The notes beneath the pieces are model-generated. The model searched no databases. It was given only the letters and a program-made list of their open reading frames with translations, and was not told the origin of the DNA. A stretch of 64,000 nt of DNA, taken from IMG/VR virus record IMGVR_UViG_3300009183_004565; one strand, written 5' to 3'. Of the stretch, positions 35,057 through 54,868 are shown one piece after another. The stretch is from a virus (taxonomy: Duplodnaviria > Caudoviricetes). Both the position numbers and the translations under genes were made by a program. The first letter of the stretch is position 1. Each line of letters begins with the position of its first letter.

Positions 35057-35135
35057 TGCTATAATACAGGTATAAATAATTGTGTAGGATGCTTCGGGTC
35101 CTATAAAACTTGCTTATTTTTAAGGAGAAACTATG
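35057..35135 (+). promoter_or_regulatory. dnaK leader: extended -10, late promoter, UUCG hairpin and ROSE-like SD-occluding hairpin
   Basis: TGCTATAAT 35057-35065, TATAAATA 35071-35078, gtaggat-g-c-TTCG-g-gtcctat 35084-35104, CTTGCTT 35109-35115 complementary (bulged G) to AAGGAG 35122-35127. Confidence 0.7.
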
Positions 35136-37019
35136 AGTACAATCATTGGTATCGATCTTGGTACCACCAATAGCTGCGTAGCAGTAATCGAAAACGGAAC
35201 CCCAAAAGTAATTGAAAATTCAGAAGGCGCACGTACTACACCTAGTATCGTTGCCTATACTGCTGAAGAGATTATTGTGGGAGCCGGTGCAAAACGTCAA
35301 GCAGTTACCAATCCAAAAAACACAATCTATGCGTCCAAGCGTTTAATAGGGCGTAAATTTACGGAACAGGCAGTTCAAAAAGATATTGATCTCATGCCTT
35401 ACAAGATCATCGAAAGCGCGAACGGCGATGCATGGGTGTCAGTCAACGACACGGAACTAGCACCTCCACAAATCAGTGCCGAAGTGCTTCGCAAAATGAA
35501 GAAGACCGCAGAAGACTATCTGGGTCATGAAGTAACACAGGCTGTAATTACTGTGCCTGCTTACTTCAATGACAGTCAACGACAGGCAACCAAAGATGCC
35601 GGAGCAATTGCTGGACTAGAAGTATTGCGTATTATCAATGAGCCAACTGCAGCAGCATTGGCATACGGAGTCGATAAAAATGAAAAAGCTGATCGCAAGA
35701 TCGCTGTGTACGATCTGGGTGGTGGTACCTTTGATGTTAGCATTATTGACATTGCTAATGTGGACGGTGATAAGCAATTTGAAGTCCTTTCCACCAATGG
35801 TGATACATTCCTAGGCGGTGAAGACTTTGACCAACGCATCATGGATTACTTGATCACTGAGTTTAAGAAAGAGTCAGGCGTTGATCTTGGTCGAGACGTT
35901 ATGGCACTGCAACGTCTAAAAGAAGCTGCAGAACGTACCAAGATTGAATTGAGTAACAGCACACAAACAGATGTGAACTTGCCTTACATCACAGCAGATG
36001 CTACAGGTCCCAAGCACATGAACATCAAGATGACTCGTGCTAAACTGGAAAGCCTAGTTGATGAATTGATTCAGCGCAGTATTGAACCTTGCCGTGTTGC
36101 AATGAAGGACGCAGGTGTCGTAGCCACGGACATCGATGAAGTTATCCTTGTTGGTGGTATGACACGTATGCCACGGGTTCAGGAAGAAGTTGAAAAGTTA
36201 TTTGGACGAGCACCACGTCGTGATGTCAATCCAGATGAAGCAGTAGCGGTTGGTGCAGCAGTACAAGGTGCTGTACTAGGTGGTAGCCGTAAAGACGTTC
36301 TATTACTTGATGTGACCCCACTAAGCCTAGGTATTGAAACCATGGGCGGCGTGATGACGAAACTAATCCAAAAGAATACCACTATTCCTACCAAGCATAG
36401 CCAGGTATTCTCTACAGCCGAAGACAACCAGCCGGCAGTAACTATCAAAGTCTATCAAGGCGAACGCGAACTTGTACAATATAATAAAACATTAGGTGAG
36501 TTTAATCTAGAAGGAATTCAACCTGCTCGACGTGGTGTACCGCAAGTAGAAGTCACGCTGGATGTTGACGCCAATGGTATTCTTAAAGTAAGTGCCAAAG
36601 ATAAAAGTACTGGCAAAGAAAACCGGATTACTATCAAGTCGGACAGTGGTCTAAGCCGAGAGCAGATTGAAGAAATGATTCGCGATGCCGAAGCTAATGC
36701 AGATGCAGACACAAAGCAACGTGAATTGATCGAAGTACGTAACCAAGCAGATGCAGTTGTCCACAAGATTCAAACTGATATGAAAGAAGCGGAAGGCAAG
36801 CTTTCGGAAGATCAGACGAAACAAATAGATGAGGCAATTGCCAACCTCAACAAGGCAATAGCAGAAACAGACAAAGAACTAATTACCACCAAGGTATCTG
36901 AGTTACTTGTTGCTGCGAATATTATTAATGAACTACAACAGCCGCAGACTACAGAAGAACAGCCCGAGCCTAAGGCCGATGACAATGTGGTTGACGCTGA
37001 ATTTAAAGAAACGAAGTAA
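35133..37019 (+). CDS. dnaK: Hsp70 chaperone DnaK
   Basis: [50 protein letters not shown]-terminal VVDAEFKE. Confidence 0.99.
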
Positions 37020-46020: not shown

Positions 46021-47269
46021 TCAACACTTAGGCGCTATAGTTGAAAATTTAATCGGAGACATAACTGCAAACGTTTTATCACAAGTAGAAACTGTGATAA
46101 CAAACGCAGTTAATGCCCGCTTATCTACCTATAACTTTGAGCCGCATATCAAAGAAGCAGCATCAGAGGCTTTTGAAAAGAAAGTCAATTTATATCAAAT
46201 TGACAATCGTAAACTTGAAGGTCGCATCGCTGAAAGAATTACGCAGACGATTGATAGTATACAAGCCAATACCACTGAAAAAATAAATCAAGCAGTCAGC
46301 AACAGTATCAAAAATACCAACTTTGATCTTGCAATGCAAGGAGCAGTTGGTCATATTATCGCAGATAGAATGCGTGATCATGTATTCCCCAATAACAGTA
46401 TACACGCCAGTGCAATTAATTTTGAAAATTACACAATCAGTGGTGATTTAATACAAGGCGGGATAGTTACACAATTTAGTAGCAGCGGAATTGACGATAG
46501 AGCAAGTCAAGTTGCATTAACTATCTTAGATGAAGCCACTGTAGTTGAAAACAATCTATTAACACGAGATCTTACTGTTGAAGGAACTGTTACAGTCAAC
46601 GGCAATTTAATCATAAATGGTTCTGTTCCAGAAGATTCAAAATTCTACACAGACCTAGTAAACAATTCTACAACTACAACTTTATCAAGACTTGACAATA
46701 CACTATTTAATAATTACAGTACCACAATATTCAACAAGATTCGTGAAGACGGTCTTGATTTAAGTAAAATTACAATCAATGGTCAAGAAGTTATAAATGA
46801 TAATTCGTTATCAAATTCGATAACTGAAAGCAACTTACAAAAGCTCGGACAGTTAAGAGAATTACAAGTTAGTGGCGAAAGTTTATTAGCCCAAACTCTT
46901 TATGTATCCGGAAAACGTGTGGGTGTTAATACCATTGAGCCAAGTGGAGCTTTGTCTGTTTGGGATGATGAAGTCGAAATAGTGCTAGTTAAACGAAAAA
47001 AAGACACAGGCAGTTTTGGAACTCCAAGAAATCAATCTCTTATATTAACTAGTAATAACAAAGACAACATTGTATTAGATCCAGATGGATCCGCACGTAT
47101 TGATGATTTGCGTATGGGAGACATGCGTTTTTCTACTTCTAACGAACCACCAAGGCATGTCAGTGAGCGTGGTCATGTTGTGTTCAATAACAACCCAAAT
47201 CCTGGAGGTCCTATGGGATGGATCTGCTTGGGATCTGCAAATTGGGCAAACTTTGGCATAATTGATTAA
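46010..47269 (+). CDS. Hypothetical, probably virion protein
   Basis: Helical N-terminus; beta-rich C-terminus with LTVEGTVTVNGNLIING, RVGVNTIEP and PMGWIC fibre-like motifs. Confidence 0.5.
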   Translation: MDLNQHLGAIVENLIGDITANVLSQVETVITNAVNARLSTYNFEPHIKEAASEAFEKKVNLYQIDNRKLEGRIAERITQTIDSIQANTTEKINQAVSNSIKNTNFDLAMQGAVGHIIADRMRDHVFPNNSIHASAINFENYTISGDLIQGGIVTQFSSSGIDDRASQVALTILDEATVVENNLLTRDLTVEGTVTVNGNLIINGSVPEDSKFYTDLVNNSTTTTLSRLDNTLFNNYSTTIFNKIREDGLDLSKITINGQEVINDNSLSNSITESNLQKLGQLRELQVSGESLLAQTLYVSGKRVGVNTIEPSGALSVWDDEVEIVLVKRKKDTGSFGTPRNQSLILTSNNKDNIVLDPDGSARIDDLRMGDMRFSTSNEPPRHVSERGHVVFNNNPNPGGPMGWICLGSANWANFGIID

Positions 47270-47282
47270 CAATTTTGCAACG

Positions 47283-47311
47283 TTGACATAAATCAAATAT
47301 ACTGCTATAAT
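47283..47311 (+). promoter_or_regulatory. Consensus sigma70 promoter with extended -10
   Basis: TTGACA-17 bp-TATAAT with TG; ATG 5 nt downstream. Confidence 0.85.
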
Positions 47312-47316
47312 GCAGT

Positions 47317-47544
47317 ATGACTCTTACTTTAACTGAAAAAAAATGGAACGAACTCTATAACCAGATCCGCGAGGAACACGGTGATAGTACCGTTCTACTC
47401 TCTTGGAAATTAAAGGAAACATTAGGATTTACTGTTCGTAGACATCGTGACTATAATCCCGTCAATGGACACATGGTCAATGATATACGTTTGGATTTTT
47501 ACGACGAAGCAGCATTAACCTTTTTTCAGTTAAAGTATCTATGA
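47317..47544 (+). CDS. Small paralogue 1 (FxxE..FxL[KR]W family)
   Basis: Ends FYDEAALTFFQLKYL. Confidence 0.65.
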   Translation: MTLTLTEKKWNELYNQIREEHGDSTVLLSWKLKETLGFTVRRHRDYNPVNGHMVNDIRLDFYDEAALTFFQLKYL

Positions 47545-47891
47545 CCACTAATGCTTATCTCGTGTATTGGTGTAATGAAGGACTAGAAGGTGTAGTACCT
47601 ATTACTGAATACGAACAAATAGATGCGGAAAATACATTTAGGATTCTCAAAGACCAAGGTACTATACGTAATCCCGTGTATGATATCATTCAAAAAATGA
47701 TATTACGCGGCCGGGCAAATTCGCAACGGCATTATGAACTATATGCTATTGACTGTGACGAGAACATTAGTGAAGAAGATTTCAAACAATGGTTTGAAAC
47801 CACACCACAGGCAGCAGCAGATTTAATTAGAAGTCGAGGCTTGAAAATCTACAGCGATCGTGCTGGAGAAAACAGAGTCAAAATAGTGTGA
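47541..47891 (+). CDS. Hypothetical protein
   Basis: ATGA-coupled 116-aa ORF. Confidence 0.6.
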   Translation: MTTNAYLVYWCNEGLEGVVPITEYEQIDAENTFRILKDQGTIRNPVYDIIQKMILRGRANSQRHYELYAIDCDENISEEDFKQWFETTPQAAADLIRSRGLKIYSDRAGENRVKIV

Positions 47892-48133
47892 GCAGACGAT
47901 ATAAAGTACTAGTGTTGGATCGTAAGATAGGACGTTGGGTACAAATAGACAACAATCCATATGACCCTACAGAACTGGCTCATCATTATCACATGAATAT
48001 GACTGAAGATGCAATGGTTGAAATAGATCGTTGGGTATTACAACACGACCTAGGACGTAGGCAATCGTTTGATATGTGGCAGTTACATGATGATCGTGCA
48101 TTAACAATGTTTTTATTAAAATGGGGAGAGTAA
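47888..48133 (+). CDS. Small paralogue 2
   Basis: Ends LHDDRALTMFLLKWGE; GTGA coupling. Confidence 0.65.
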   Translation: MSRRYKVLVLDRKIGRWVQIDNNPYDPTELAHHYHMNMTEDAMVEIDRWVLQHDLGRRQSFDMWQLHDDRALTMFLLKWGE

Positions 48134-48134
48134 C

Positions 48135-48314
48135 ATGAATTTTGCTTTGGTAATTTATACAGTAGTAGCAATGTCAGGTAAAAACGCAGACTTGGTACAG
48201 GCACGTGATTGGCGTCCTGTTGCTAGTTTTAGTACGGTAGAACTTTGCAATGATGCTGCACACTTGATGGGTATATCATCGGAACGGTATCGTTGTGTAC
48301 GATTAACAAAGTAA
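48135..48314 (+). CDS. 59-aa secreted/membrane peptide (not in ORF track)
   Basis: MNFALVIYTVVAMSG...CNDAA...YRCVRLTK; ggggag SD. Confidence 0.55.
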   Translation: MNFALVIYTVVAMSGKNADLVQARDWRPVASFSTVELCNDAAHLMGISSERYRCVRLTK

Positions 48315-48317
48315 GCA

Positions 48318-48551
48318 ATGAGTCTTGTATTTCCTGAAGATGGACGTTTTATTGCCACCGGTCCTTTTGACCAGGAAATGCCACATCACTATATAATCAT
48401 ACGTGACTATCGTTGGTTCAATCTGCACGAAGCAGAAATATATGAGTGGATGGATCAATGCTTGCCACAGGGCAGGAAACATCAACGAGGCATGGTTATT
48501 GTGATCGAAGATGAAAGTGATGTTAGTAATTTCCTATTGAGGTGGCAATGA
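48318..48551 (+). CDS. Small paralogue 3
   Basis: Ends IEDESDVSNFLLRWQ. Confidence 0.65.
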   Translation: MSLVFPEDGRFIATGPFDQEMPHHYIIIRDYRWFNLHEAEIYEWMDQCLPQGRKHQRGMVIVIEDESDVSNFLLRWQ

Positions 48552-48709
48552 CCCGGTATCGTAGTCCCAAAATGTCCGAAGCATGGGCTCGTATGCAATG
48601 GTGTGAGCAAATGTTTGGTGATCACGACATTCGTTGGTGGCGCGATCGAGGACATCTATTCTTTCGTTATGAGTCGGACTATATGCTATATTTGTTGAGG
48701 TGGGCTTAA
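48548..48709 (+). CDS. Small paralogue 4 (53 aa, not in ORF track)
   Basis: Ends FRYESDYMLYLLRWA; ATGA and TAATG coupling. Confidence 0.65.
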   Translation: MTRYRSPKMSEAWARMQWCEQMFGDHDIRWWRDRGHLFFRYESDYMLYLLRWA

Positions 48710-48969
48710 TGAGTTCTAGAATACACATTCCATTTGCAACAATGCAATCTAAAAAAGCCAAAATTGATTCTTGGCTTGAAGCCAATGCTGGCACCGGAAG
48801 TGCTAGATATGGTGGTAAAGAAGGCATAATTAATCATTGGCTCAACGGAGAAGATTACTGTTACTTTGACCAATTCACCACCAAAGACGGTTTATTCGAA
48901 ACCTTTGATACTGTATTTGTATTCCGCGACGAACGTGTAGCAACAGAGTTTGCCTTGAGGTTCGCATGA
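48709..48969 (+). CDS. Small paralogue 5
   Basis: Ends FRDERVATEFALRFA; TAATG start. Confidence 0.65.
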   Translation: MSSRIHIPFATMQSKKAKIDSWLEANAGTGSARYGGKEGIINHWLNGEDYCYFDQFTTKDGLFETFDTVFVFRDERVATEFALRFA

Positions 48970-49172
48970 TAGTAGAATTATATGACGTTGATGATGACAT
49001 CGAAACAGGTCTATGGGCACACAAAAACTGCCCAAGTTTTACTGGTTGGGTCATCATTGACGGTCATCCACATGATGACTATAGATCAATGTGTAAATTC
49101 TATTTCGCCGAAGAAAAAGATACTATGTTATTCCTGATGCGTTGGCAAGGTCAGTCTGATGTACACCTATAA
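48966..49172 (+). CDS. Small paralogue 6
   Basis: FAEEKDTMLFLMRWQ near the C-terminus. Confidence 0.65.
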   Translation: MIVELYDVDDDIETGLWAHKNCPSFTGWVIIDGHPHDDYRSMCKFYFAEEKDTMLFLMRWQGQSDVHL

Positions 49173-49365
49173 CAAAAAGCATTGGCCATATCAATTTCGT
49201 ATGCTGCCCAAATTGGATGCTTGGGAACAGATGTGTCAACTTGAGGCATATTGTTATGAACATTTCAAAAGTGGTAATTGGCGCAACAACGGACTTTACT
49301 TTGCATTTAAACGAGAATCAGATGCTGCACTATTTGTGTTGAGGTGGAACTGTGAAGGATCATAG
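49159..49365 (+). CDS. Small paralogue 7
   Basis: FKRESDAALFVLRWN near the C-terminus. Confidence 0.65.
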   Translation: MYTYNKKHWPYQFRMLPKLDAWEQMCQLEAYCYEHFKSGNWRNNGLYFAFKRESDAALFVLRWNCEGS

Positions 49366-49591
49366 CAACCCATTAAGCCGTCCTTATGAGGTTCGATTGG
49401 CCGAACAAGGATTTGTGTATAGAGTCAATTTACGGAACAGTATAGAACCGGATACCTTGGATGATTTAAACGATTGGCTAAAGGAACGTGGATTACGCCC
49501 AAAACAGGATTACATAATGAGTAATTGGGGATATTATTTTAAAGAAGACCAAAAAGAAACTGCCACATTGTTTGCTCTAAAATGGGCATAA
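49352..49591 (+). CDS. Small paralogue 8
   Basis: Ends FKEDQKETATLFALKWA. Confidence 0.65.
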   Translation: MKDHSNPLSRPYEVRLAEQGFVYRVNLRNSIEPDTLDDLNDWLKERGLRPKQDYIMSNWGYYFKEDQKETATLFALKWA

Positions 49592-49595
49592 ACTC

Positions 49596-49826
49596 ATGAC
49601 TAGTCCATATCACTTTCCTATTACTACAGTTCAAGATTCCTGGTCAACTACAAGTTATCCGGCCACAGCAGGAACAGGATTAAAACATACAACTATTACC
49701 GAAACCCACTATCCTGAGGGAAGTAGCACTAGACACGTAGAGACATATAGTGTTATAGTGTATGATGCTGCAGGAAGATTAAATGCTTACAACAATAGAT
49801 CCAACTATATTGACATATACGTATGA
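49596..49826 (+). CDS. Hypothetical protein
   Basis: 76-aa ORF, ATGA-coupled to uvsE. Confidence 0.5.
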   Translation: MTSPYHFPITTVQDSWSTTSYPATAGTGLKHTTITETHYPEGSSTRHVETYSVIVYDAAGRLNAYNNRSNYIDIYV

Positions 49827-50848
49827 TTAAACGAATTGGTTTTGCTTGCAAATGGTTAAATGATCCCTCCGAATGTGGGGGCATGAAAGTAAATGCTGTA
49901 GATCGTGACCTCAATGGCCGTAGCACTACTATGCGCTGGCTACGCGAACATCCTGCCGAAGCCGAACAGCGTCAGTGGGACATAATGAATCACAATGCCT
50001 CGGCTGCTGTAAAAATGATCGAGCGTGTGGCCACATTACCAGCTGAACGCAGAATGGTGCGGCTAGGCTCGGAAATGCTGCAAGGCTACACTGAAAAAGA
50101 CTGGCAGACATGGTGGCAGCAAGCAGATGTGCAACGCCATCTAGAACGGATATTTGCACCCATTGGTGAAACTGCACGACGTCTAGATGTACGCCTCAGC
50201 TTCCATCCCGGACAGTTTTGTGTGTTGGCCAGTGAAAATGACAACATAGTAAATAGATCTATAGAGGAGTTTGAATATCATGCAGATATGGCAAGATGGA
50301 TGGGCTACGGCACTTCGTTCCAGGACTTTAAAATCAATGTCCACATCTCGGGTAAACGCGGTCCGGCCGGTATCCGCAGTGCGCTCAGCCGACTCAGCCC
50401 TGAAGCAAGAAATTGCATCACAATCGAAAACGACGAAATGTCCTGGGGCATTGACGCCAGCCTTGAATTGGTCACGGACGTTGCTCTGGTGCTAGACCTA
50501 CACCACCACTGGATCAGAACCGGAGAATATATTGACCATAGAGATGATCGTATCAAGAGGATCCAGGATAGTTGGCGCGGTGTTCGTCCTGTTGTTCATT
50601 ACAGTACTAGTCGTGAGGATGTTGTGGTGGATCATGCATGCGATATCAAACCTGATCTAGATCGATTGTTAGCTGAAGGATACAAGAAACAAAAGCTCAG
50701 AGCACACAGTGACTTTGCATGGAATCGCGAAACAAATGCATGGGCACTAACACATTGGACATGGGCTGACATCATGGTTGAGGCCAAAGGCAAAAATCTT
50801 GCTAGTCAGCAATTGTACGAGCAACAACTGAATTTAACTGCTGACTAA
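49823..50848 (+). CDS. uvsE: UV-damage endonuclease (UvsE/UVDE)
   Basis: RIGFAC, RLGS, RLSFHPGQF, NVHISG, ITIENDE, LDLHHH, HYS, AHSD, IMVEAK. Confidence 0.93.
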   Translation: MIKRIGFACKWLNDPSECGGMKVNAVDRDLNGRSTTMRWLREHPAEAEQRQWDIMNHNASAAVKMIERVATLPAERRMVRLGSEMLQGYTEKDWQTWWQQADVQRHLERIFAPIGETARRLDVRLSFHPGQFCVLASENDNIVNRSIEEFEYHADMARWMGYGTSFQDFKINVHISGKRGPAGIRSALSRLSPEARNCITIENDEMSWGIDASLELVTDVALVLDLHHHWIRTGEYIDHRDDRIKRIQDSWRGVRPVVHYSTSREDVVVDHACDIKPDLDRLLAEGYKKQKLRAHSDFAWNRETNAWALTHWTWADIMVEAKGKNLASQQLYEQQLNLTAD

Positions 50849-54158: not shown

Positions 54159-54712
54159 TTTTGTTAGTAACAGCGGGTGTCTGCAGCTCTGCCATGGCAG
54201 AATGCTACATGCGCTCTGCTACAGTTAAAGAATCCAAATCCACGGTTACAAGAATTGCAGACATCAAGCGTTATGTAACTCCTGTGGATGCAGAGCATTT
54301 TAAATGTACCGTGGGATTTAGAGCTGAAGTTAACCATGTGTGGCAAACCGGCGAAGGGCAAAGTATCGGAACTAACGGTGACAGCATTGATACTGTATGT
54401 ACCCAAGCACTAGATTCCGCACGTAGTTATTTGTTGGCCCGAGTCAGTAATGGTAAAATGTTAAATGAACAAGAAATGATTTGTACAGATCGCCCGGATC
54501 CAGAAGTCAAGTCCGTTAAAATTGGCGATATAGTACAGATATCAGAATTGGCACCACATCCACAAAAACCTGATTTCTTTGCGTATCGTGGAGCTCAATG
54601 TCGTTGGTTTGTAGAAACGGATGTCAATTTAGCAGCCAGAGACCTTTTTCAATGGCAAGGTATTGCCTGTAATGTGCGAAAAGGTGAATGGCAAGTGATT
54701 GACAAATTTTAA
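54143..54712 (+). CDS. Secreted Cys-rich protein
   Basis: Signal peptide ending AMA-E; six further Cys. Confidence 0.65.
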   Translation: MSKLLILLVTAGVCSSAMAECYMRSATVKESKSTVTRIADIKRYVTPVDAEHFKCTVGFRAEVNHVWQTGEGQSIGTNGDSIDTVCTQALDSARSYLLARVSNGKMLNEQEMICTDRPDPEVKSVKIGDIVQISELAPHPQKPDFFAYRGAQCRWFVETDVNLAARDLFQWQGIACNVRKGEWQVIDKF

Positions 54713-54727
54713 TCAACCTGTTATAAT
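54699..54727 (+). promoter_or_regulatory. Consensus sigma70 promoter with extended -10
   Basis: TTGACA-17 bp-TATAAT with TG; ATG 6 nt downstream. Confidence 0.85.
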
Positions 54728-54733
54728 ACAGCT

Positions 54734-54868
54734 ATGAATAAATTATTCCTAATTATAGTATTTGCAGCAACAGCGTTCGCTACCGGCTGTTCTACGGTAG
54801 CAGGAGCCGGTAAAGATATTACTAGCGGCGCCGAATATGTTCGTGATAAAATTGGAGGTAGTAAATGA
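54734..54868 (+). CDS. Entericidin EcnA/B-like lipopeptide (44 aa, not in ORF track)
   Basis: MNKLFLIIVFAATAFATG-CSTVAGAGKDITSGAEYVRDKIGGSK matches the EcnA/B C-x-T-x-x-G-x-G-K-D-I pattern. Confidence 0.75.
   Translation: MNKLFLIIVFAATAFATGCSTVAGAGKDITSGAEYVRDKIGGSK

Follow-up and report, generated by a model that had tools for sequence, protein, structure and literature searches.

Eight diverged small-protein paralogues share one tightly packed operon in an uncultured freshwater giant phage

Organization of the locus

An uncultured freshwater giant phage carries eight diverged small-protein paralogues within one tightly packed operon (Table 1), which lies in a 64 kb stretch of DNA (the window, that is, the whole stretch that was analysed) occurring in freshwater metagenomes from several studies. 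The eight open reading frames (ORFs), here genes A, C and E to J, had been grouped in an earlier note on this DNA by a common C-terminal motif; all of them are present, and the motif was found in every one. They belong to a coupled block of 12 genes on the same strand, from gene A through a UvdE-type endonuclease (47317 through 50848). The coupling by overlapping stops and starts that the note had described was confirmed across the operon, with ATGA junctions at 47541, 48548, 48966 and 49823, a GTGA junction at 47888, a TAATG junction at 48709 and 14 nt overlaps at 49159 and 49352, while gaps of 1–4 nt are found at 48135, 48318 and 49596. Pfam and PHROG scans of the eight ORFs and their neighbours gave nothing significant, and no Rfam families or tRNAs were found in the window.

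Table 1. Features of the operon, with positions in the window and the evidence for each assignment. Member, member of the family; HMM, hidden Markov model (external, built from database proteins only).
Feature	Position	Strand	Evidence	Remarks
Sigma-70 consensus promoter, 17 nt spacer ending in TG	47283..47311	+	12/12 positions	
Gene A, 75 aa, first cistron, divergent subfamily, ends ...FFQLKYL	47317..47544	+	External HMM, E = 0.057	Subfamily members also in unrelated arrays L021 and L022; dN/dS 0.10
Gene B, 116 aa, non-member, strongly conserved orphan	47541..47891	+	No HMM match	284 homologues; the 120 listed have 116 aa (one 119) and are 65–89% identical; no Pfam family
Gene C, 81 aa, member, GTG start, ends LKWGE	47888..48133	+	External HMM, E = 1.5e-12	Orthologue in L008 82% identical, dN/dS 0.14
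Gene D, 59 aa, non-member, hydrophobic N-terminus	48135..48314	+	No HMM match	86% identical to L008 counterpart
Gene E, 77 aa, member, ends LRWQ	48318..48551	+	Leave-one-out E = 9.5e-4; external HMM, E = 6.4e-17	69 external relatives at >=40 bits
Gene F, 53 aa, member, ends LRWA	48548..48709	+	External HMM, E = 5e-7	Absent from closest relative L008; nearest protein 46% identical, in unrelated array L021
Gene G, 86 aa, member, long loop insertion, ends LRFA	48709..48969	+	External HMM, E = 5.7e-5	Orthologues in L003, L007 and L008, at differing array positions
Gene H, 68 aa, member, ends MRW + 8 residues	48966..49172	+	External HMM, E = 4e-11	Motif Arg is CGT, unlike Shine–Dalgarno; motif far from next start
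Gene I, 68 aa, member, ends LRW + 5 residues	49159..49365	+	External HMM, E = 6.3e-19	
Gene J, 79 aa, member, GTG start, ends LKWA	49352..49591	+	External HMM, E = 9.6e-6	AGGTGG 4 nt ahead of the GTG start
Gene K, 76 aa, non-member, ATGA-coupled to next gene	49596..49826	+	No HMM match; junction from sequence	
UvdE-type endonuclease, last gene of coupled block	49823..50848	+	phrog_8420, 2.7e-68	Orthologues carry Pfam UvdE
Example of dual-use junction: TTG AGG TGG (Leu-Arg-Trp) = GAGGTGG, then next ATG	48537..48550	+		Arrangement recurs at 48695–48711 and 49339–49354

The operon is preceded by a promoter of the form TTGACA-17-TGnTATAAT, of which two perfect sites occur in 64 kb against 0.09 expected. 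The first ATG lies 5 nt downstream of it, and both the promoter and this 5 nt spacer are kept in the relatives L002, L003 and L004; in a predicted structure of the gene A product, residues 1–5 are modelled with confidence as a strand. The consensus promoter proposed in the earlier note is thus borne out, and a leaderless first cistron is plausible from this layout, while early expression, suggested only by the likeness to the sigma-70 consensus, stays a plausible reading. Near the array the T4-type late motif TATAAATA does not occur, and the window as a whole shows no enrichment of it.

A paralogous family

The motif common to the eight ORFs is hydrophobic-F-x-F-x-x-[ED]-x-[DE]-[AT]-x-x-F-x-L-[RK]-[WFY], followed by 1–8 residues, and can be summarized as h-F-x-F-x-x-E-x-D-A-x-x-F-L-L-[RK]-W. 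In a leave-one-out HMM analysis, seven of the eight ORFs ranked first among about 1010 non-training six-frame segments of the window, with 7.1–16.2 bits versus 5.0–6.5 bits for the best other segment. Six of these seven also outscored all 500 shuffles of the left-out protein, the seventh, gene C, scoring 8.1 bits, just under its shuffle maximum of 8.6; gene A ranked second, with 5.6 bits. An HMM built from database proteins only recovered seven ORFs with E values from 6e-19 to 6e-5 and gene A marginally, the next segment having an E value of 0.34. When the gene A subfamily was aligned with the main family using hhalign, a probability of 75% and an E value of 2.6e-5 were obtained over the last 23 columns only; on these profile comparisons, gene A is a divergent subfamily, with only the putative C-terminal strand and helix in common with the main family. 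No further copies were found by the HMM within the 64 kb window.

The similarity spans approximately 45–60 residues and includes an upstream tryptophan helix, which the earlier note had also pointed out and which was upheld, its tryptophan (W31) being kept by 90% or more of the 106 members aligned. Neither of the two outcomes that the note had named as refuting its reading came about: a chance origin of the motif is not borne out by the HMM ranking, and the eight ORFs are genuine paralogues for whose family one fold is predicted.

Beyond the window, the family comprises 826 clusters (50% identity) at E <= 1e-3 among 1.84 billion proteins, with lengths of approximately 50–140 aa. Nearly all of the best 150 of the 826 clusters are small proteins with the domain at the C-terminus, and 132 of 149 representatives stop within three residues after the motif tryptophan. 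The domain almost always ends 1–2 residues ahead of the stop codon; in six of the eight window copies, [RK]-W is followed by 1–3 residues, genes H and I having the longer tails. The family looks phage-only and unannotated: searches of Pfam, PHROG and NCBIfam with 106 members revealed no relative (NCBIfam gave two isolated chance matches only), and a PDB profile search with the family gave no match. Likewise, no match was found by blastn of 7 kb of the region against 50,697 phage records, or by tblastn of two family members and a 418 aa neighbour against the phage collection.

Remote members were recovered from cultured jumbo phages, namely gp209, gp210 and gp237 of Pseudomonas phage PA5oct and at least six ORFs of Atu_ph07 (E = 7.5e-7 to 6e-4), all of which are annotated as hypothetical proteins. 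Genes close to the three PA5oct ones are flagged as virion components by mass spectrometry, but gp209, gp210 and gp237 are not, and these three are not mentioned in the PA5oct omics paper. The same profile that recovers the PA5oct and Atu_ph07 copies matched nothing in T4, RaK2 or 121Q at E <= 0.1.

Some family members bear N-terminal pieces resembling segments of terminase, capsid or tail-fibre proteins. The terminase-like N-termini were considered as the mark of a split terminase gene, an idea that was dropped because the genes concerned sit in ordinary arrays of small ORFs with no terminase nearby. An apparent similarity to endolysins (a GRG..Q.TG stretch) concerns the same segment as the terminase-like piece and is weak (E = 0.04–0.08).

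Predicted fold

AlphaFold2 models, which cover two of the eight ORFs, gave a strand–helix–strand–strand–helix order for gene I (pLDDT 79.7) and a strand–helix–(two helices)–strand–strand–helix order for gene A (pLDDT 90.8). Both contain three strands and two core helices, and in both the protein ends after helix 2, with the fourth strand absent. Structures predicted independently for relatives gave TM scores of 0.67–0.83, in agreement with a common fold, and the nearest ESM Atlas clusters are 89–100% viral. The family domain is therefore predicted to adopt a ferredoxin-like arrangement without the final strand, in which the motif would supply the last strand and helix.

Foldseek returned no PDB entry at E <= 0.001, and the best VIA-align Z scores for the two models, 5.6 and 5.0, are at the background level of the aligner. 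The same holds for the individual neighbours, i.e. an ACT domain (5v0s; Z = 5.6), DCoH (5.0), RRM (4.7–4.8) and T4 Arn (3wx4; Z = 4.9, r.m.s.d. of 3.5 over 64 residues). These proteins have the same strand–helix–strand–strand–helix order and two-layer α/β arrangement, but the family lacks their fourth strand and has no sequence similarity to them, and no Pfam match to RRM_1 or ACT was obtained. At this background level, neither membership nor function would be derivable from the matches.

The models also bear on the proposal that the motif is a constant C-terminal docking element with variable faces elsewhere, which does not follow from them. The motif corresponds to the predicted last strand and helix of the fold, and most of its conserved positions hold hydrophobic and aromatic side chains (W, F, F, L and W), a pattern that reads as a folding core; in addition, its last codons appear to be under constraint because the following gene uses them for ribosome binding.

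A putative ribosome-binding site within the motif codons

The arginine of the motif is encoded by AGG or CGG in 29 of 34 copies, versus 30 of 297 other arginine codons of these ORFs (odds ratio 52, p = 2.6e-20). Orthologues from related phages are among the 34 copies, which therefore fall short of full independence, but the bias is also present in the unrelated contigs L005, L021 and L022. The motif codons TTG AGG TGG give GAGGTGG, a Shine–Dalgarno site 5–8 nt upstream of the next start. The two cases of CGT at the motif arginine are the two copies with 8- and 10-residue tails, and in the lysine variants the protein motif is kept while the DNA is changed. To judge from this codon usage and spacing, most copies carry the ribosome-binding site for the following gene within their own conserved final codons. 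A conserved protein terminus doubling in this way is a concrete and testable case of dual coding, and could account for the continued expression of long coupled arrays of small genes during turnover of their content.

Age and turnover of the array

The copies in the array have 13–33% amino-acid identity in alignments, no direct repeat exceeds 23 nt and, apart from the motif codons, no DNA is repeated. For every copy the nearest relatives lie in other phages and not in the array itself, the best external matches scoring 30–168 bits while no paralogue from the array scores above 30 bits. The dN/dS values of orthologues range from 0.10 to 0.20 (seven measurable member pairs), versus 0.07–0.29 for the flanking genes. 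The duplications are thus ancient, given the low identity, the closer relatives in other phages and the purifying selection, and on these comparisons the paralogues are separately conserved subfamilies.

Related phages differ by whole cassettes. The closest relative, L008, has two extra members between genes A and B, with ATGA on both sides, and is missing gene F; the order of the array differs in L003, and L006 is without the array. The same subfamilies recur in unrelated arrays, one of which (L021) has at least 16 copies within 6.8 kb.

Alternative explanations

A gene accordion is a recent tandem amplification, as in the poxvirus K3L gene, and the earlier note had seen an expansion of this kind in the array. 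Such a reading, in which copies amplified in situ would have diverged fast against variant host defence targets, could draw on the tandem arrangement of the genes, on the variation of copy content between related phages and on the variability of the regions outside the motif. It is largely refuted by the low identity of the paralogues without nucleotide repeats, the closer relatives of every copy in other phages, orthologue dN/dS values like those of the flanking genes and the reappearance of the same subfamilies in unrelated arrays, and we regard it as very improbable; the array is better described as an old, curated collection of subfamilies than as a recent burst of duplication. Even less probability, close to none, is left for the motif being a nucleotide-level signal only, a Shine–Dalgarno site with a coupling overlap at the end of otherwise unrelated ORFs. 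The strong bias of the last codons towards GAGGTGG would be expected from such a signal, but the similarity extends well upstream into the tryptophan helix, the lysine variants retain the protein motif although the DNA changes, and this reading is refuted by the HMM, which finds the family across its 826 clusters, and by the predicted fold common to members.

It is also conceivable, if unlikely, that the proteins are small regulators in which the ferredoxin-like half-domain acts in the manner of ACT or RRM modules and has a metabolite, RNA or DNA as its ligand in place of proteins. The best structural neighbours of the models are ACT, RRM, DCoH, KH and similar ferredoxin-like modules (Z = 4.6–5.6), and G-x-F-x-F-x-x-E-x-D-A presumably resembles the stretch from RNP1 to helix 2 of RRMs, which we take as a lead only. 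These Z scores, however, are at the background of the tool, the fourth strand is absent from the models, the charge of the members is inconsistent (pI 4.5 to 9.0), the conserved aromatics would be placed at the expected core of the fold and the PDB profile search gave no match. A still smaller probability is assigned to self-propagating cassettes of little use to the phage, which would persist since their built-in ribosome-binding site and stop/start overlap permit insertion at any point of an operon with no polar effects. The dual-use junction and the precise gains and losses of cassettes fit this idea, as do arrays reaching 16 or more copies and the N-terminal pieces of some members that resemble fragments of other phage proteins; on the other hand, the whole protein is under purifying selection, distant phages retain the N-terminal motifs particular to each subfamily, and the arrays showed no accompanying recombinase or nuclease.

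Possible function

Host-takeover and anti-defence factors come mainly from the small early proteins of phages, most of which are unannotated. The explanation that we favour, and hold as a whole with moderate confidence, is that an old phage family, arranged in a coupled operon, provides early intracellular binders on a common minimal scaffold. The promoter would drive early expression, with the first cistron translated leaderless, and each family copy would, through its built-in Shine–Dalgarno codons, feed ribosomes to whichever gene comes next, and the overlaps between stops and starts would be the points at which cassettes enter and leave the array. The products, small and cytoplasmic, would be made early and stay out of the virion, and each subfamily would bind its own host or phage target, in host takeover or anti-defence, on the shared scaffold. 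Surfaces that vary between members, as seen in pI values of 4.5 to 9.0 within the array, are in line with this reading.

Since no member matches a protein of known function, the binder role is a best guess by analogy with other early small phage proteins, and the role of inhibitors or adaptors against host or defence proteins, as put forward in the earlier note, is a reasonable inference. A fast arms race fits poorly with the low dN/dS and the conservation of subfamilies across phages, and these two features fit housekeeping-type roles equally well.

A bolder form of the favoured explanation, possible but rather unlikely, treats each gene as a self-coupling cassette in which the Leu-Arg-Trp-X-stop tail would supply both the ribosome-binding site and the start overlap, the whole forming a shuffled, phage-wide toolkit for host takeover or anti-defence in which the N-terminal pieces might be decoys for defence sensors. 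If this were true, binder genes could change places, enter or drop out in whatever order inside a single polycistronic early operon with expression kept, and the hundreds of subfamilies would constitute a phage-wide binder toolkit on one minimal scaffold. The family, which Pfam, PHROGs and NCBIfam lack, has members in PA5oct and Atu_ph07, two jumbo phages in culture, and this allows direct testing.

Comparison with known phage arrays

Like the array genes, the remote members in PA5oct and Atu_ph07 have a W-C-x-E-N helix and an F-x-F-x-x-E-x-x-A-x-x-F-x-L tail, but their terminal Arg-Trp is degraded (LQF, LIH and LYF), and they occur singly or in pairs, in contrast to the eight-gene array of the window.

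Kilobases of same-strand arrays of small paralogues, of unassigned function, have been described in a large phage (2017, PMC5646251), and an expansion of approximately 35 zinc-ribbon copies is known from Bacillus phage G (Iyer et al., 2021, PMC7824862). As here, large phages devote kilobases to small paralogues on the same strand; however, those arrays are described as very similar copies from tandem duplication, whereas the present copies are ancient and strongly diverged, and their subfamilies are common to several phages.

The PeSLs of T4-type phages are mobile regulatory cassettes of hyperplastic regions, consisting of intergenic promoter-plus-terminator units (Arbiol et al., 2010, PMC2839356). 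The array resembles them in that the variable stretches separating core genes contain small non-essential ORFs, the boundaries of these genes carry a short, conserved and recurring expression signal, and relatives differ by whole modules. No repeated intergenic promoter with a stem-loop terminator of the PeSL type was found in the array, where genes overlap or lie 1–4 nt apart. Unlike PeSLs, the array has one promoter in total and no intergenic DNA, and its repeated signal is, on the codon evidence, a ribosome-binding site placed inside the conserved last codons of the protein itself.

Gene family and predicted fold

All eight same-strand open reading frames (ORFs) of 53-86 amino acids that the earlier note had taken for a tandem family were found at the proposed starts when ORFs were listed and positions 47000-49800 of the window read directly. 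Each ends in the pattern hydrophobic-F-x-F-x-x-[ED]-x-[DE]-[AT]-x-x-F-x-L-[RK]-[WFY], upstream of which a helix bears a Trp, often followed by a Cys; alignments bear out both the C-terminal motif and the Trp-bearing central helix described in that note.

Features of the array and of related loci (genes A-K lie on the + strand; starts only where no end is given)
Feature	Position	Length (aa)	Remarks
DnaK homologue	35133-37019		full length
Array promoter	47283-47311		TTGACA-17-TGnTATAAT, 12/12 consensus positions
Inverted repeat	47298-47319		ACTGC...GCAGT
Gene A	47317	75	member
Gene B	47541-47891	116	motif absent
Gene C	47888	81	member
Gene D	48135-48314	59	motif absent
Gene E	48318	77	member
Gene F	48548	53	member
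Gene G	48709	86	member
Gene H	48966	68	member
Gene I	49159	68	member
Gene J	49352	79	member
Gene K	49596	76	motif absent
UvdE-type endonuclease	49823-50848		last of twelve genes
Other perfect promoter site	54699-54727		upstream of gene starting at 54865
Radical-SAM gene	L003:9257-10567; L007:3764-5074	436	related contigs
P0029, P0059, P0144	L021:1453-1812; L022:3572-3988		N-terminal extensions; unrelated contigs

Since BLAST similarity between ORF pairs is weak, profiles were used. In leave-one-out HMM searches against about 1,010 non-training six-frame segments of the window, the left-out ORF ranked first in seven of eight cases, six of which also scored higher than every one of 500 shuffled versions of the protein; gene C reached 8.1 bits where its best shuffle gave 8.6, and gene A ranked second with 5.6 bits. 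An HMM built from database proteins alone recovered seven ORFs (E-values 6e-19 to 6e-5), gene A scoring 0.057 and the best unrelated segment 0.34. The family similarity is thus above chance, gene A being marginal. Aligned by hhalign with 60 other members, the gene A subfamily gave 75% probability and an E-value of 2.6e-5, confined to the final 23 columns; together with the HMM results, this suggests a divergent relative having the terminal strand-helix unit in common with the family. The subfamily also occurs in two unrelated arrays, where the tail, FLLKYG, forms a bridge between both motif variants.

The AlphaFold2 model of the gene I protein (18-sequence alignment, pLDDT 79.7) comprises a strand (residues 11-14), a helix (21-35), two strands (41-43 and 47-50) and a helix (53-63), an order shared by the model of the gene A subfamily (pLDDT 90.8), which has two short additional helices. 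The common fold proposed for checking is therefore seen in both models; independently predicted structures of relatives match with TM scores of 0.67-0.83, and the predicted element order matches a ferredoxin-like fold minus its fourth strand. The near-invariant columns W31, F50, F59, L61 and W63 probably form the hydrophobic core, judging from their conservation.

A profile search of the full library (1.84 billion representatives) returned 826 clusters at E <= 1e-3; among the best 150, nearly all measure 51-144 aa and carry the domain C-terminally. Scans of 106 members against Pfam, PHROG and NCBIfam gave no family, isolated chance matches aside, a PDB profile search gave no match, and 'hypothetical protein' is the name used throughout the source records. 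The nearest ESM Atlas clusters are 89-100% viral. By profile, remote members, all annotated as hypothetical, occur in the cultured jumbo phages PA5oct (gp237, gp210 and gp209; E about 1e-6) and Atu_ph07 (at least six ORFs), and no copy was found in T4, RaK2 or 121Q. Far larger arrays are present in other uncultured phages, one contig (L021) packing at least 16 copies into 6.8 kb.

Also encoded in the window are a ribonucleotide reductase, a UDP-glucose dehydrogenase, virion proteins, a DnaB-type helicase whose nearest relatives are those of PA5oct (49%) and Atu_ph07 (54%), and a DnaK (Hsp70) homologue about 65% identical to proteobacterial DnaK, with no close copy among cultured phages. Judging from CheckV estimates for related contigs, genomes are about 350 kb in size, and the stretch is present in freshwater metagenomes of several studies.

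Transcription and translation signals

From gene A to uvdE, the twelve genes overlap or lie at most 4 nt apart, which agrees with the coupling described earlier. Perfect TTGACA-17-TGnTATAAT sites occur twice in the 64 kb, against 0.09 expected. The ATG of gene A follows the array promoter by 5 nt, leaving no space for a ribosome-binding site; three related contigs keep the promoter, the spacer and the ATG, and residues 2-6 of the protein form a confident strand in the model. The array's first gene is thus most probably leaderless. Of the 'consensus early promoter' claimed previously, the consensus stands in full, and early timing would follow from its likeness to the sigma-70 consensus. Among cultured phages the nearest relative is PA5oct, which relies on host RNA polymerase and has similar promoters. 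The inverted repeat flanks the -10 hexamer and its CTGC/GCAG core is kept in relatives; either an operator or mere promoter conservation could account for it. The uvdE gene is coupled through an ATGA junction to the final small gene of the array and may therefore be co-transcribed from the array promoter.

Among 34 family copies with a motif Arg, from the window and six other contigs, this residue is encoded by AGG in 23 and CGG in six, compared with 30 of the 297 Arg codons at other positions of these ORFs (odds ratio 52, p = 2.6e-20); the counts include orthologues, and the bias is also seen in the unrelated contigs L005, L021 and L022. Combined with the single Trp codon, the biased codon yields (G)AGGTGG, a match to the Shine-Dalgarno consensus whose GAGG core lies 5-8 nt upstream of the next start. 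Only two copies use CGT, those in which eight and ten residues trail the motif and so hold it away from the next start, and in Lys variants GG(A/G)G comes next. The protein ends exactly one residue past the Trp in 94 of 149 representatives, and within three in 132. The non-member genes of the block supply no such site to the gene after them. Codon bias and spacing argue that most copies carry the predicted ribosome-binding site of the following gene, a feature new here.

Evolution of the array

In syntenic contigs the array is flanked by a 419-aa gene on one side and uvdE on the other. Nine members are present in the closest relative (L008), two of them additional copies between A and B with ATGA at each side; L008 lacks F, and its counterpart of H is 33% identical. 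Two other relatives (L003 and L007) have differing member sets in differing order, and in a further one (L006) the array is absent. Orthologues are 68-88% identical, with dN/dS of 0.10-0.20, in the range of flanking genes (0.07-0.29). Every window copy is nearer to proteins of other phages than to its array neighbours (F, 46% identity to an L021 gene; H, 51% to the database protein P0104; E, 84-90% to many proteins), and no nucleotide repeats were found in the array. These observations point to ancient duplications and separately conserved subfamilies, which argues against the recent accordion-like expansion that the earlier note had proposed.

Several neighbouring genes lie outside the family. 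Gene B has 284 homologues, the 120 listed being 116 aa long (one 119) and 65-89% identical; very strongly conserved, with no Pfam family, it appears to belong to the core gene set of the clade. The name 'cytidylate kinase' in two JGI records is probably wrong. Gene D, conserved in L008, combines a hydrophobic N-terminal segment with two Cys, and may encode a small membrane or exported protein; in L003 its array position is taken by an ORF of 63 aa whose N-terminus is likewise hydrophobic. In L003 and L007 the 419-aa gene is separated from the array promoter by the radical-SAM gene and an ORF of 117-119 aa; both are absent from the window and L008.

Possible functions and comparison with known systems

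No family member is linked to a known activity. The proteins are small, have no signal peptides, differ in charge (pI 4.5-9.0) and are predicted to be expressed early; the N-terminal region is conserved subfamily by subfamily, and the PA5oct members have no virion mass-spectrometry flag, which their neighbours carry. We give roughly even odds to a reading, shown only in part, of small intracellular proteins on a shared scaffold, each binding a particular host or phage component. That the members bind a ligand or nucleic acid seems improbable; solved structures gave only background-level matches, the best being an ACT domain (Z 5.6), with RRM, DCoH, KH, designed ferredoxins and T4 Arn (Z 4.9) among the others. 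That they are selfish cassettes is less probable still. The scaffold reading is our preferred one.

N-terminal extensions of 30-60 residues on some members (P0029, P0059 and P0144; P0103, P0125 and P0147; P0050) resemble pieces of other phage proteins, namely the Walker-A segment of the terminase large subunit, W-Q..GRQ.GKS (phrog_2, E 0.006-0.04), part of the gp23-type major capsid protein (Pfam Gp23, 15-21 bits, under the cut-off) and a motif like that of tail fibres (phrog_1325, E 6e-8). Their genes are located in ordinary small-gene arrays, not adjoining terminase, capsid or tail-fibre genes.

Arrays of similar small genes have been described in the jumbo phages 121Q and G (PMC5646251), as have a zinc-ribbon expansion in phage G (PMC7824862) and PeSL-mediated modular shuffling in T4-type phages (PMC2839356). 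In contrast to these systems, the copies in this array are old, their family has not been described before, and gene boundaries are marked by a predicted ribosome-binding site set within conserved protein codons.
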